This document shows positions 4,812-14,479 of a stretch of DNA of 64,000 nucleotides, piece after piece. The notes below the pieces were generated by a model that was not told the DNA's origin, made no database searches, and saw only the letters and a list, made by a program, of their open reading frames with translations. The stretch's first letter is position 1. Each line of letters opens with the position of its first letter. The translations under genes and the position numbers were made by a program. Origin of the DNA: Neodothiora populina (Eukaryota); contig NW_027191404.1 of assembly GCF_041146345.1 (NCBI RefSeq), forward strand, positions 1,550,001-1,614,000. Reading direction: 5' to 3'.

Positions 4812-5290
4812 ATGTTCGAGGAGAATGGTTGATTATTGTTCGGATATCTAGTCGTCTGTCAGGAAGTGCAGCAGTGCTACCTACCTACTTTATGCATTAT
4901 ACAAGAGCAGTACCTACCCAGCTAGCTAGCTATAGTGAGGGTACGACCTTTGCTCCATAAAACATGTCTGCATGCTTGCTGAAGACATGCCATCTTCAGC
5001 GACGTTATAGAAGTCTTGCCTGCCTGGTCAGCTACGAGATGTGTTACATGTCCTCGCTCAGTGAGCGAGCAAATCTAGTGCTTTTGTTCAGATTCGACTT
5101 CGAACTCAACAGCAACAACAGCAACAGGAATAGAGAGATAGGTTCCTGGGTTGAGTTGTAGAATAGCTCTTTACACCCAAAACCACTGTGTGAGTCAATC
5201 ATGCTGTAATATGGTTCGACCAGCGATACTTCCAATTAAGGTATAGTGCTACCACAAAGCTGCCGGCCTTTAACCACCCTTTTTTTTGGT

Positions 5291-5310
5291 AATCGAATCG
5301 CTCTGATTGG
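5291..5310 (-). promoter_or_regulatory. Putative bipartite CBC:HapX site (CSAAT-N12-RWT)
   Basis: Minus strand reads CCAAT-CAGAGCGATTCG-ATT(AC), about 415 bp upstream of the ATG at 5725. Confidence 0.4.
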
Positions 5311-5724
5311 TCAGTGCCCGTATTCTGCTGACCCAAAAAGAAAGCTACAACGACTCGAGTCTTTTTCGAGCTTAGGCTCTCACCCCCCTCTCTCTTGTAC
5401 AGCAAGGTATGTACCTGCCCGCCAGCCAGCGGGAAGATAGAATGCGGGGCAAGAGCAAGCTTTGGGCTCTCTAAAGTTCAGGTAAGGAGGGAGTGATCAG
5501 GAGTGAGTGACTGACACTGATTAATCGACCAATCACCCCACCTTGGTAGTGCGGTCTGTTTGTTTCCTTCTTCTTTTTCTAGCAAGCAACCCTCTCCCAT
5601 CCCCCAAGTTCAGGCTTCCCACACAATACAAAAGAGAAAAGAAAAGAAAAAATCCAGTAAACAACCCCCCCCCGACCACCACAAAACCACCTTCCCCCCC
5701 AACCCGACCAAAGACCCCCCCAAA

Positions 5725-6171
5725 ATGGCCGCCTCCTCCTCCGCTCAAGTCTGCCCCATAGTAGGCACAACAAACACGATCCTGCCCCCAACCCACCCCG
5801 ACTTCGACCTCAGCCTCCCGGGCCAAACCTGCCCGATCACAAACGCGACCACAGACCACCACCACAACCTGTCCAAGCACCCAGTCGTGCCCAACGCCAA
5901 CGCTAACAACGCGTCCGCCTGCCCAGCGCTCAAAAACGTCCTCTCGGAGCCGCAGAACGAAGCCCTCGACGAGGGCGTCTGTCCCGTTGTGGGACCGGTT
6001 TCGACCATCCTGCCGCCTGATCATCCGTCTACTGCCGCTAATAAGCAAGGCGATGTTTGTCCGGTTACGAAGGCGTCGCTGGGCCATCATGTGGGTAAAG
6101 TCCATGAGCATCCTAACGTTGAGGGCGCGGCGGAGGGCGCGGTTTGTCCTGTTGTTGGGAGGAGGTCGTAG
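5725..6171 (+). CDS. Small (148 aa) uncharacterised Cys-Pro/His tandem-repeat protein, candidate heme/metal-binding
   Basis: ATG in strong context (CAAAATGG). Two internal repeats of the form CP[IV]VG-x4-ILPP-x-HP-x10-CP[IV]T-x5-HH...HP...CP. All 6 Cys are in CP dipeptides; 10 His. Confidence 0.85.
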   Translation: MAASSSAQVCPIVGTTNTILPPTHPDFDLSLPGQTCPITNATTDHHHNLSKHPVVPNANANNASACPALKNVLSEPQNEALDEGVCPVVGPVSTILPPDHPSTAANKQGDVCPVTKASLGHHVGKVHEHPNVEGAAEGAVCPVVGRRS

Positions 6172-6598
6172 GGTGGCGACGGGGTTGTAAGGGGGGTTAA
6201 TTGTTTGGCTTATGCGAGTGGGTTGTTGGTTTCTTTCTTTTTTTTCGCTGAAGGCGCCTGGGGTGTGGGCTTTCGGTACGGGCAAGCAGAACTAAGAGGG
6301 AAGGAGGGGTATCTGGAGGTTATTTCGTCGTTACTCGTGAGATATCCTGTACGTAGAGATGATCTTGTCTGATTCTCATCATGCACTTTTGATTTTCTCC
6401 ATGTGCACGAGTGCAAGCGGGCATGCCATCGAGCTATGTGTCTGACAACAGTCACTTGAATGGGCATGTGAGCTTGATATAGTAAGTTTTACATTAATCG
6501 TTAAAATGAACATGAAAGAAAAATTAAAGAAACTGTTTCCAACTCTGCAATCCTTCATTGCCTCATTATAGTCAAACTTTCATGAAGCGACAAAGGAA

Positions 6599-9681: not shown

Positions 9682-12675
9682 TCAATCATGCTTTTCATAG
9701 ATCAAAGCTTTGTCGGGGTCAGCGCTCGACTGCCCTTCCACTGCAGACTTCTCGGGGTCAAGGTCCAAATGCTGCAGCATTGGTAGGGATTGATCCTTGG
9801 ACTTCTCCTCTGTGGCACCGGTGTCCCCTGTATCGACAAAGGCTGGTGAAGAGAGGCCCTTCGATTCCACCTGCTCTTGTCCAGGCAAATTCTTAGGTGC
9901 ATCCGAGTCACCTTCCGACTCGAGCGGCGTAAGCGCACCCCTCTTTTCAGTGTCTTCCCCTGATGAACCTTCCTCGGAGCTATTTTGGCCGTCATTGTGT
10001 TCTTTACTTACAACACCGGCTCTGTTCTCGACTTGCCCGTCTTCGGGTATCTTCTTGCTTTCTGGTTGGTGATTCTCTTCCTTTGTCGTTACCTCGACCC
10101 CCGCATCGGTTGCCCCATCATATGGCTTCGTATTTTCGATGATATCGACCTCGTCGTTGGGTTGATAAGTTCCTTCGACGACCTTGATGTGTGCATCTCC
10201 GTACTTCAAGTAGGCCCTGAGCCCCAGCACACATACTGCACTCCACGGGTCATCAGAATATATATCATCCTCGTCATCCGAGCTGTCTGAAGTACTGCTG
10301 ACGCTATCGTCAATTTCTGGATCCCATTCGAAGTCGTCGTTGACGATGTCATCTTCGGCGTCGTAGATCTTGGCTATGGCTTTGTCTGTCATGTTGTCGA
10401 TTGGAGATCCTGCATTGGTTGGCATACTGCCGTCCGGTGCGAATAGCGCGGGAGGCAGATAATCCGGCGGTGGTGGTGAGACTGATGGAGTGCCACAACA
10501 GTCCGCAGGAAAGTGGACGCCTTTACTTGCGGCCTTCTCACGAACTTCGCGCCAGAAGTTGCGTTCCTTCCTTCTAGCCTTCTCCTTTTCGATACGCTCT
10601 CGCCTTTTCATATCTCTTCGCTTGGCTTCTTGTCTTACTTTCCGCGACTTGGCATTTCTCTCTGTGCGACGCCTCTTGAGTTCTTCTTCCTCTTTCTCTC
10701 TGTTTTCTCTTTCCTTGTCTCGACGTCGACCTTTTGCATGTGCGAGGTCGAAATTGCGGCCTGTCTGCAGTAGCTTTTCACGGCGTGAGCTATACGATGC
10801 AACGACGCTACTGGCAGACACACGCGAAGTGTATCGCTCAGCAGTGATCTTGAGCACGACTGAGTAGGTCCCAGCTGGAAGATCAAGATCTGCCGTCACA
10901 GAGCGAAGGCCACGTGGGGTACATCCGCTTCCAAGCATAGAGCGAGCTATGTAAGTACTCGATGTTGTGACGGGACATGGGTAGATACGGAAGTGAAGCG
11001 AGAACTCATACCGGCCCTCCAACCCGCGGAAATAGCGCGTGTCGGGCTGGCAAAGTACCAGGACTACGGGGCCCGGTTGCGAAATGGTAAGGATGAACTG
11101 AGTGTCTAGATAGTCGGCAACCGGCGGCACATTGACAGATGTCCATTGCTGTATTGCTCTCCATTCGTCAGTGAAGAGACGGGTCCGATCAATGATGTAG
11201 AAGTGCCGAAGAAAGTTCTCGTACGTCATCCAGAACACCTGCGATCTGTCAATATTCGGAACGATTTCTCGATGACCTATACTTACACCAGGATCTTTGA
11301 AGTTGTAGCCGAGTCTATCGACAAGCTCAGAGGACCACTCTGTGAACTTGTGCATCCAAGGTCCATCGTCCTGATGTCTGCCCCATGGATCGCGGAGTTT
11401 CAGCAATTTTAGTTCCTTGTGATCCAGCACCTGGAGCACTGCGTATGCGTGTTGAGAAGTCTTCCCACCGCGTTCATAGTGCTTCGCCCCACCAGCGAAG
11501 AGATATGTGTCATTCGCTGTGCTGAGCTCCTCCCAGAAGCGTTGCTTATCGAGAATCTGTGACGGCTTGAGAGACACGGACACGCCTCCAGTGAGATCTT
11601 CGATGCCTTCACTACAGCCAGAAGTTATTTAAGTCCTGAAAGCTAAATAAGGGCCTGCATACCTGGTATCGCCCCCCTCAACAGAGCCATAATCTCCATG
11701 AGACTTGGCGTAGGCTTTCTCGATCAGTGGAAGCCATGTGTCTGAGTTGTTCTTGCAGCGGGCGAAGAATAAGGCCTCGCCGCCCTTCTGAAGATTCTCG
11801 CGCAGCTTGCTGATATCATAAGACGTGGTGCTAACCTCTTGCTTGCGGTGGCCAGATTCCACATATCTACCAACGAAAAGATCCTCACCGTCCGACACAT
11901 GCAAGAAGAGTCTATCATCTATGACTTCTGGTACCCAAGCGCCGTCTAAAACTGGGGTCAGCCAAGATCACATATCCATGCTCTTTGACTTACCTCGGAA
12001 GAACACAAATCCATATACACCGACTTGTTCGTCGCGGTCAACGCATAGACGTTTTATCAAGCCAGGTTTGGCCGCCAGACTCATGAGTGCGGCTAGTAGC
12101 CAACAGTCCCCGAGTTGGCCTTGTATGACATCGGACGCACTGGCACGGTTCTCATTGAACTGTGGATTTTCGAAGATATCCTATACCTTATGAGTAAGCT
12201 GCTTGGTGCATTTGCTCTTTCTCGTGCCTACCTCAATACGTTTCACGGCGGAAGGTCTCGCATTGTCTTCATCATAACTCGAATTGCCAAGCGGGAAGAT
12301 GCAATCATGCTCTTGATTCTCTAGATCGAAGTGGCGATCGACATATTTCTGGTTCAGTCGTCTGCACTCTGCAACGATGGCACGGACTTTCGCTGTGCAC
12401 TCAGCTTTGGCTTCTTCGTACGAGCTTGTGGGACTCTCGTGCGTATTCAGCCCATTGTCGCCTTTATCAGCAGCTACTGCTGTCTCAGCAACACGTCTCG
12501 CCAGCGATGAACTGGCAGCTGCTCGACTCGGCGACTTGGCAATGAACTTGTCCCAGGAAGTGTAGAAATCATCATCTGGGTTCGTATCATCGCTACTGCT
12601 GGATCCAGGATAGAACTTGGGACCTTCCTGCACCACTTTGATGGAAACAGGCGGTCCGTGATGTCTCGTATCCAT
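9682..12675 (-). CDS. Calpain-like cysteine protease (peptidase C2); introns 12181-12231, 11946-11993, 11612-11662, 11239-11286
   Basis: QGQLGDCWLLAAL (catalytic Cys), WLPLIEKAYAK, EGIEDLTGG, HAYAVL (His), LRDPWG, and a domain-III-like GPVVLVLCQPDTRYFRGLEG. All four introns have GT-AG ends that restore frame. Confidence 0.9.
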
Positions 12676-13600: not shown

Positions 13601-14479
13601 ATGCTCAGCGTTTTCCAAACCCGCTACGCGCGGATGGAGCAGGCGCTCAATGCCTTGATTGAGTCGATCGTAGCATATAATCCCTCACTGAATGCTGCAG
13701 ATGAGCTTGTAGCAGCTGATGACGAGGTCAACGAGGCCTTAGAGCAGTGTATGTAGGTATTCATCGTCACCTAGGCCCGTCTTACTAATCCTATAGTGGC
13801 CATCCACCAAGCAAATTACGCGCAAATACTTTCTTTACGTCAGACTGCAGATGCTTTGGACAGCAATATCAAATCAACCATGAGGATGCTTGCCGACACG
13901 CGAAGAGAACTACTCAACATACCCGGTAGACAGGACACGGCTGTCATTCGCGAGGTCCCCGTCGAGGAGCTGTTGTCATATGCCAAGTTCATCAGTAAAA
14001 CGACAGTACCTCCCACATTCAGAGGACACATTCCAAAGGAAATCAATGCAACCCAGCAGTCAACAGAGCAAGCACCGACCCAGATTGCCAATGGTATGGC
14101 TACCCCGGCAGGTACAGGTGCAGACGGTGGTCTGCCACAACAGCAAGGTGAAGGTATTGGTGTGTCTAAGCTCAACGAAGAGACAAAGGACATGCTCGAT
14201 CCTCTAGCGAAGCTGCCCTTCTACCCTTGGCCTTCTCCAGATCTCATCAGAGTGGGTGCTCTGTCAAGTATTCAGGTCATGCTGGAGGATGGCAGAGACC
14301 CTTCAACGGTACTAAGTAGGGAGGAGCAAGAGGCGGAGGATAAGCGTAAGGCTGACAAAGAAGAAAGAAAGCGGCAAGAGGAAGAAGAGCTGGAGCGTAA
14401 ACGCTTGGAGAGCTATGCTATGCGCGGTTCTGGACGACAACAAGAAACTGAGGCTGTCTTCGACCCAGATGAATTGTGA
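13601..14479 (+). CDS. MED4: Mediator of RNA polymerase II transcription subunit 4; intron 13749-13796
   Basis: N-terminal helical segment (LIESIVAYNPS...ELVAADDEV), EELLSYAKFISKTTVPPT, PWPSPDLIRVGAL, and an acidic/charged tail typical of fungal Med4. Confidence 0.85.

Follow-up and report, generated by a model that had tools for sequence, protein, structure and literature searches.

The window analysed here is a 64,000-nucleotide stretch of the Neodothiora populina genome (NCBI RefSeq assembly GCF_041146345.1, contig NW_027191404.1, positions 1,550,001 to 1,614,000 of the forward strand), and our subject is a small, intronless gene near its beginning. The gene occupies 5725..6171 on the + strand, stop codon included, and encodes a 148-aa protein (P0001) of repeated Cys-Pro (CP) and His sites, which we refer to as the CP/His protein. 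The open reading frame (ORF) runs for 148 codons from the first in-frame ATG to TAG, its product is identical to the protein quoted in the first-pass annotation of this DNA, and its start and stop agree with those of homologues, of which 373 of similar length were recovered. The gene was correctly read as a single exon because it is continuous at the position where one homologue (locus L001, described below) carries a fungal GT..AG intron. Judged by its conservation, 5725..6171 is a real, strongly constrained gene, and an artefactual ORF was ruled out on the same ground.

The protein has a mass of 15.2 kDa and a pI of 6.0, with 12% Pro, 10 His and one aromatic residue. In agreement with the first-pass annotation, which had seen neither a signal peptide nor a membrane segment, no signal peptide, mitochondrial presequence or membrane segment was found by simple measures rather than dedicated predictors (the top Kyte-Doolittle 19-residue window scores 0.92, and residues 1-30 contain no K or R). 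From these crude hydropathy and N-terminal measures the protein is probably cytosolic.

Repeat structure of the CP/His protein

The protein had been described as two repeats of about 75 residues in which every Cys belongs to a CP dipeptide. BLASTP of residues 1-80 against 81-148 bears out the duplication (25/64 identities, 39%, E 8e-14), with CP, LPPxHP, HH and His-Pro (HP) in register and the quoted spacings right, including the x10 from HP to the next CP in both halves; the repeating unit, however, is a triad of three modules and about 62 residues. The description of the cysteines was also accurate, as all six lie in CP. Shuffling the protein 200,000 times never produced that number (29 shuffles came closest, with five), and in the other long ORFs of the window Cys is followed by Pro in only 9 of 188 cases. 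The four HP dipeptides are only mildly unusual alone, four being reached in 4004 of the 200,000 shuffles.

Module types were assigned by parsing what follows each CP site. Module 1, CPV(V/T)G-x5-LPPxHP, gives a C-x13-H arrangement, module 2, CPVTxA-x3-HH-x5/6-HP, gives C-x8-HH, and module 3, CP(A/V)L, has no downstream His of its own. Triad unit 1 (residues 9-71; 5749..5937, +) consists of CPIVG..LPPTHP, CPITNATTDHH..KHP and CPALKN, and triad unit 2 (residues 85-146; 5977..6162, +) of CPVVG..LPPDHP, CPVTKASLGHH..EHP and CPVVGR, both being supported by the self-alignment, the module parse and an alignment of 398 units. Between them lies a linker (residues 72-84; 5938..5976, +) whose length differs among relatives, and AlphaFold2 predicts helices at residues 67-73 and 76-80. 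The CP sites, on the same strand, are CP-1 (C10-P11, codons TGC CCC; 5752..5757), CP-2 (C36-P37; 5830..5835) and CP-3 (C66-P67, directly before the predicted helix 67-73; 5920..5925) in the first unit, and CP-4 (C86-P87, codons TGT CCC; 5980..5985), CP-5 (C112-P113; 6058..6063) and CP-6 (C141-P142; 6145..6150) in the second. The His sites, also on +, are H24-P25 in module 1 (5794..5799), H45-H46 in module 2 (5857..5862) and H52-P53 (5878..5883), followed in the second unit by H100-P101 (6022..6027), H121-H122 (6085..6090) and H129-P130 (6109..6114).

The family, its conservation and its predicted fold

A word-indexed search with the window protein returned 373 proteins of 81-259 aa at E<=0.01, the best 120 of which share 55-78% identity over >90% of the length; named rows among the matches listed belong to the Dothideomycetes, Chaetothyriales, Helotiales and several Sordariomycete orders. 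When the search was seeded with a divergent member (P0126), 173 matches were found, the best 120 being mostly from Cladosporium, Zymoseptoria, Cercospora, Elsinoe and rock-inhabiting Dothideomycetes. Every name among the matches listed is 'hypothetical' or 'uncharacterized', the exception being P0099, whose UniRef label begins '5-aminolevulinate synthase pres...', and none is from Aspergillus, Fusarium, Neurospora or Saccharomyces, which does not amount to a genome-level survey of absence. In an exhaustive HMMER scan covering 1.84 billion cluster representatives, 62 proteins matched at E<=0.001, many of them fragments, and the family is therefore compact.

Non-ascomycete labels among the matches listed were confined to Athelia psychrophila (Basidiomycota) and Quercus suber (P0030, P0202). 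The Quercus suber record is probably fungal contamination, and either contamination or gene transfer could account for the A. psychrophila homologue, which has 65% identity and lies on a 617-kb contig. A search of bacterial and archaeal genomes gave the single locus L001, on the 2954-bp contig JBPBPI010000053.1 from a bin labelled as a Janthinobacterium lividum metagenome-assembled genome, where the gene copy holds a 48-nt GTATGT...CTGAC...AG spliceosomal intron (about L001 2562-2609) and adjoins a Ser/Thr-rich single-pass membrane protein. A bacterial homologue was rejected on account of the spliceosomal intron, and the contig was taken as eukaryotic/fungal DNA contaminating a bacterial bin.

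Conservation was followed in two alignments which agree with each other, A1 with 48 sequences and A2 with 118 more diverse ones. In A1 conservation of the six CP pairs is complete or no lower than 90% (CP-1 to CP-5 are invariant in both alignments, CP-6 in A2 and nearly so in A1), and the same holds for H24-P25, H45-H46, H52-P53, H100-P101, H121-H122 and H129-P130. Among 187 full-length members (135-160 aa), 1114 of 1117 Cys stand in CP, with exactly six CP in 179 members and five in the other eight. The residue after CP is V in 879 of the 1114 cases (79%), A in 150, I in 78, K in five and G in two, and the residue before it is V, I, A or L in 721; Cys-Pro with flanking aliphatic or hydrophobic residues, as in the class of heme regulatory motifs (HRMs), is thus found at 6 of 6 Cys in the window protein and with V/A/I following in 1107/1114 in the family. 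Aromatic residues average 0.87 per protein in the same 187 members. Among 182 members pre-selected for six CP, H24, H46, H100, H122 and H129 are present in 100%, H52 in 99.5%, H45 in 97.8% and H121 in 95.6%, the first His of HH being Asp in some members, and H47 and H127 are not conserved (51% and 62%). Positions other than ligands are also fixed in A1 and A2 (G14, L20, P21-22, A41, G90, L96-P98 and A117), and the mean column identity across classes is 44-55%, with the whole length conserved.

The profile search that had been proposed as a check therefore turned out in favour of the earlier description, with homologues across ascomycete classes and the six CP and HP/HH His conserved family-wide. 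The view that the protein is little more than six CP/His sites did not hold, as it is conserved over its whole length and its fixed three-module triad duplicates as a block. The parse reads 1-2-3-1-2-3 in 170 of 190 members (135-170 aa); the other 20 parse differently under this crude pattern, some apparently truncated at one end and others with a module misread. The 398 units extracted, which include 39 from multi-unit proteins, align with the same invariant columns, where the module 1 CP and P.HP belong to the extraction pattern and are invariant partly by construction, and the Gly, LPP, Ala, HH and second HP are not part of it. Each triad of about 62 residues carries 3 Cys and 4 His (3 of the His invariant and 1 nearly so), which can be read as three putative Cys/His pairs, C-x13-H, C-x9-H and H-x11..13-C.

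Two triads are found in Pezizomycotina and up to four in Taphrinomycotina. Because the multi-triad relatives in Taphrinomycotina share the unit, we read the triad as old within the Ascomycota and its array as one that grows or shrinks by whole triads. Longer relatives (15 proteins of 260-2000 aa, E<=0.001) carry glutathione S-transferase (GST) Pfam domains in 10 of 15 cases, where one to four triads and a 2-2-3 tail precede a GST complete with N- and C-domains; those named, Taphrina deformans P0277 and Savitreella P0124, are both of Taphrinomycotina type. The fused GST is nearest in the PDB to Phi-type and other cytosolic GSTs, where 6to3 ranks first (E 2.1e-9) ahead of maize GST I and III and Arabidopsis GSTF2. 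The roughly four units of Protomyces P0123 come without a GST, and in the 148-aa protein the GST N- and C-terminal domains are absent by Pfam. Neither a GST gene (tblastn best E 0.62) nor a second copy of the CP/His gene was found in the 64-kb window. In three further proteins (P0283, P0284 and P0286) the first ~110 residues of a CP/His protein run into a major facilitator superfamily transporter, an AMP-binding enzyme and a multi-domain protein; they have the look of annotation that ran on past a missed stop or intron rather than of true fusions.

With the 48-sequence alignment AlphaFold2 gave no fold for the window protein (mean pLDDT 54.8, pTM 0.27), and with 118 sequences it gave an irregular, loop-rich model at mean pLDDT 75.2 and pTM 0.56, 114 of 148 residues lying at pLDDT 70-90. 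The prediction depends strongly on alignment depth and diversity, and the shallow run alone would mislabel the protein as disordered (models md47060e44346 and m7480f4e12ac6). Predicted secondary structure in the deeper model is sparse (strands 13-15, 84-86 and 90-93, and the two helices given above), with isolated bridges next to several ligand residues. Foldseek against 350,542 PDB chains returned 5 matches with E<=10, of which none reached E<=0.001 (best E 5.8, TM <=0.12), the weak rows including Kti11, CTCF fingers and rubredoxin at probabilities <=0.02. The family probably has a defined, irregular fold without a solved analogue and with nearly no aromatic core and, because a predicted fold of this kind has virtually no such core, we take it to mean that a bound ligand organises the fold. 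The cytosolic heme sponge suggested in the first-pass annotation survives this check in part, since the model argues against a purely disordered sponge and fits a ligand-organised domain better.

At E<=1 the window protein matches no Pfam family, a result that covers PF09029, Cyto_heme_lyase and the zinc-finger, metallothionein and Fe-S models. PF09029 (Preseq_ALAS, a presequence with heme regulatory motifs) is the sole Pfam family matched by near-length relatives, at E<=0.1 in 34 of 48 A1 members. A per-protein scan matched it in 30 of 40, with 7/40 reaching the 21-bit gathering cut-off, which the window protein does not reach; P0099 scores 25.8 bits and, with it included, 8 of 41 relatives pass. 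In 28 of 30 alignments CP-3 through CP-5 fall onto profile positions of about 29-103. As regards a 5-aminolevulinate synthase (ALAS) presequence, the 148-aa protein ends after its second triad and has no pyridoxal phosphate-dependent aminotransferase domain. Ascomycete hypothetical proteins make up the two closest clusters of the protein atlas (scores 0.88 and 0.84), with PF09029 in 22% and 15% of members, the atlas gave no usable match when limited to named clusters without PF09029, and NCBIfam gave nothing relevant. The matches of a PDB sequence search were confined to designed armadillo-repeat proteins and were spurious (~3 bits per stretch, summed over repeats), and the single match of a PDB profile search with A2 (E 0.75) was rejected as His-tag-driven. 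No paper describing the family was found in a literature search that had most subscription journals and supplements outside its reach. That no characterised family could be recognised for the protein remains so, there being no Pfam match, no name among the listed relatives and no PDB relative.

Candidate ligands of the triads

We tentatively favour, at somewhat less than even confidence, a soluble, probably cytosolic, ligand-organised heme-binding protein, a buffer or chaperone that uses CP thiolates and His. Each triad would offer three Cys-Pro(-Val) thiolates of HRM type plus His, in the order C-x13-HP, C-x8-HH and HP-x11..13-C. The CP thiolates would reversibly take up ferric heme, the Pro following each ligand, in six CP and four HP dipeptides, would turn the backbone off the porphyrin plane, and a nearby His would act as the sixth heme ligand or replace the thiolate on reduction. 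Bound ligands would organise the fold of a chain which itself has almost no aromatic or bulky core, and the protein would buffer labile heme, store it or hand it over as a chaperone, its array being attached in Taphrinomycotina to a Ser-type GST. We infer heme as the ligand, its stoichiometry, the location and the physiological role from sequence features. In a doubtful, more specific version the triad would be a new domain organised by its cofactors: three Cys(Pro)-His(Pro) pairs in each unit would clamp as many as three b-type hemes, which would form the core of the fold, and filamentous ascomycetes would have in the protein a high-capacity cytosolic heme store, buffer or hand-over chaperone, coupled to a GST in Taphrinomycotina; such a heme-core triad would be, with equally little likelihood, a non-covalent, thiolate/imidazole-ligated counterpart of the multihaem cytochromes.

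Heme is favoured because a ligand followed by Pro is universal (six Cys and four conserved His in about 180 sequences), because the sites are mostly CPV with aliphatic residues before them, as in published heme-binding CP motifs, and because relatives resemble PF09029. The pattern suggests that the theme extends to His (H24P25, H52P53, H100P101 and H129P130), for which a tetrahedral metal site would have no obvious need. The fusion of the array to a GST in 10 of 15 longer relatives counts on the same side in view of the ligandin role of GSTs, as does the lack of a signal peptide, membrane segment or other domain. The sites also match the Cys-Pro-Val motif of heme lyases, reportedly proposed by Steiner et al. 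in 1996. Such a motif is given as a proposal for heme lyases in the introduction of PMC4158909, CP is presented as the defining and best-explored heme regulatory motif in PMC6356037, and heme-binding CP motifs are described in PMC10377097 as usually having aliphatic residues on the N-terminal side, with a His at least 3 residues away able to close a six-coordinate loop. The C-x13-H and C-x8/9-H spacings of the triad would allow such a loop.

Compared with known HRM proteins (the ALAS presequence of PF09029, Hap1, heme oxygenase-2, BACH1/2 and heme lyase with CPV), the common features are CP followed by an aliphatic residue (79% CPV) and preceded by one, several copies per protein, a His nearby and the weak but recurrent PF09029 likeness of the relatives. 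The CP/His protein differs in that it stands alone rather than as the appendage of an enzyme or transcription factor, and in that its motifs lie within a fixed, fully conserved three-module triad with a predicted fold, the window protein itself being below the Pfam threshold. BACH1 has six CP motifs, and the motifs of multi-CP proteins are appendages in larger disordered regions. Multi-CP proteins are already known; what is new here is a stand-alone protein built solely of conserved CP/His triads, with its own predicted fold and recurrent GST fusion. In the heme-thiolate peroxidases the Cys of the P-C-P motif sits at a helix start, comparable to CP-3, which directly precedes the predicted helix 67-73. 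The P-C-P sequence is described as the proximal-ligand motif of heme-thiolate peroxidases and peroxygenases (PMC6902001, PMC6417270), a fungal example of a Cys-Pro cysteine as a permanent heme thiolate; these are secreted enzymes of about 250-350 aa with no sequence or Pfam relation to the CP/His protein.

Several points weigh against a heme protein. PF09029 is matched by relatives and not, even at E<=1, by the window protein, and at 14-26 bits the relatives' matches are weak and could be due to CP plus composition. Most known HRMs lie in fast-evolving flexible regions, whereas this family is conserved over its whole length and its triad duplicates only as a block (1-2-3-1-2-3 in 170/190 members); the conserved length, the block triad and the AlphaFold2 fold would point to a structural cofactor domain, and fit metal sites about as well. 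No heme, iron or metal theme was found among the neighbouring genes of the window. CP peptides are reported in PMC10377097 to be predominantly five-coordinate with or without His, so that simple HRM chemistry leaves the invariant His set unexplained, and the same source places an aromatic residue near Pro in about 40% of heme-binding CP-motif proteins, whereas this family has almost no aromatics at all (mean 0.87 per protein). The need for CP motifs in heme lyase is questioned in the introduction of PMC4158909.

The main alternative, which we judge somewhat less likely, is a folded Cys/His metal protein binding Zn(II), Cu(I) or Fe-S. Metal ions ligated by 3 Cys and 3-4 His per triad, possibly shared between triads, would take the place of a hydrophobic core, knuckle-like turns would be shaped by the prolines together with the invariant Gly of CPxxG, and the role would be metal buffering, chaperoning or that of a scaffold. 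The moderately confident, compact though irregular deep-alignment model (pLDDT 75.2, pTM 0.56) is consistent with this, as are the near-absence of aromatics (mean 0.87), a trait of metal-stabilised mini-folds, the invariance of non-ligand positions (G14, L20, P21-22, A41, G90, L96 and A117) and the inheritance of the triad as a block. The segment xVCPVVG forms a predicted hairpin (strands 84-86 and 90-93) which recalls the CPxCG knuckle of rubredoxins and zinc ribbons, with an invariant Gly of CPxxG at the predicted turn, but Val or Thr stands here in place of the knuckle's second Cys, leaving one Cys per knuckle-like turn instead of two. The weak Foldseek rows for Kti11, CTCF fingers and rubredoxin point the same way but at probabilities <=0.02, and the search found no metal-protein fold (best E 5.8, TM <=0.12). 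Further against a metal protein, none of the usual metal signatures is present, Cys being only 4% of residues with no CxC, CxxC or CC pair; the zinc-finger, metallothionein and Fe-S models of Pfam stay unmatched at E<=1, no relative by sequence is found in the PDB, the ligands are 9-29 residues apart, and the Pro after all six Cys and four His in about 180 sequences would be left unexplained.

The metallothioneins and small Cys/His metal proteins share with the CP/His protein a small size, few aromatics, invariant ligands and a fold that probably depends on what is bound. Metallothioneins contain 15-30% Cys, compared with 4% here (6 Cys in 148 residues), and the CP/His protein has no CxC, CxxC or CC in its own sequence or in the family consensus, long ligand spacings and a Pro after every Cys. 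The suggestion of a metallothionein-like protein, made alongside that of a heme sponge, accordingly fails on Cys content and motif type.

A thiol-redox or glutathione protein is a still less probable explanation, in which the six CP Cys would be activated and act, through reversible thiol/disulfide or S-glutathionylation/S-nitrosation chemistry, as a buffer or switch; the GST servicing them would belong to the same chain in Taphrinomycotina and be a separate protein in Pezizomycotina. The GST fusions in 10 of 15 longer relatives, with complete domains nearest to Phi-type and other cytosolic GSTs (best E 2.1e-9), speak for it, but they are confined to one subphylum, and by tblastn the 64-kb window has no GST gene beside the CP/His gene (best E 0.62). 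GSTs are well known as heme/porphyrin 'ligandins', and a full GST stands behind the CP/His array in the Taphrinomycotina relatives, where the window protein has none; the fusion is compatible with ligand hand-over, which it fits equally well, with thiol-redox servicing, or with both. The protein has no thioredoxin-like or CxxC motif, and redox chemistry would leave the invariant His, and the Pro after them, unexplained. A precedent for redox use of such cysteines is found in heme oxygenase-2, whose HRM Cys are described as a thiol/disulfide redox switch (PMC2742820).

Least probable is a protein that binds no ligand, a conserved adaptor or interaction protein or a processed-peptide precursor with purely structural CP/HP turns, for although the fold is novel and repeated units could present repeated epitopes, there is no signal peptide, no dibasic site flanks the repeats, and the invariant positions fall chiefly on classical ligand residues (6 Cys and 6-8 His). 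A ribosomally synthesised and post-translationally modified peptide or secreted-peptide precursor was rejected for want of a signal peptide and dibasic sites.

According to a yeast study of 2026 (PMC13722074), the identity and capacity of the cellular heme buffer are poorly understood, and GAPDH is proposed there as the main buffer. A dedicated 15-kDa protein of invariant CP/His sites, from a family that spans Taphrinomycotina to Pezizomycotina and has a GST attached in some members, would be a directly testable candidate heme buffer or chaperone. If it does bind heme, it would be the first stand-alone, repeat-built HRM protein; if Zn, Cu or Fe-S is bound instead, it would represent a new Cys/His metal fold without a PDB analogue. 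Either result would name a family of several hundred 'hypothetical proteins'.

Composition and surroundings of the gene

Synonymous codon use shifts from one repeat to the other: C stands at the third position in 50 of 80 codons of the first (codons 1-80; Cys TGC x3, His CAC x5), and T or G in 51 of 68 of the second (codons 81-148; Cys TGT x3, His CAT x5). The GC skew shifts from -0.64 (5600-5780) to about +0.5 (6080-6320), and the longest stretch common to the DNA of the two repeats is 8 bases. The L001 homologue uses TGC/CAC-type codons over its whole length, unlike the window gene. Two antisense ORFs overlap the gene, of 192 aa (5533-6111, -) and 87 aa (5745-6008, -); both are Gly/Arg/Val-rich and are regarded as by-products of composition that mirror the Pro/Cys/His-rich sense frame.

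Directly 5' of the ATG (context caaaATGgc), the 125 bases at 5600..5724 (+) form a C/A-rich, pyrimidine-rich tract (GC skew -0.645 and AT skew +0.655 at 5600-5719), the probable core promoter or 5' untranslated region. A motif scan placed two GACCAATCA boxes upstream of the gene, at 5527-5535 (+) and 5302-5310 (-), and a TGAGTCA (AP-1/Yap-like) site at 5191. CCAAT is not enriched upstream of the gene relative to the window (1.66 per kb), and no regulatory conclusion is drawn from it. The upstream neighbour is a fungal Zn-cluster-type transcription factor (PF11951; 3126-4811, +). Downstream lies an aquaporin (major intrinsic protein, PF00230; 6599-8037, -) of at least two exons, profile positions 10-82 and 73-222 being matched in separate ORFs, with a long Ser/Ala/Gln-rich C-terminal tail, and further downstream are genes for a calpain (9685-11967, -) and Med4 (13775-14479, +).

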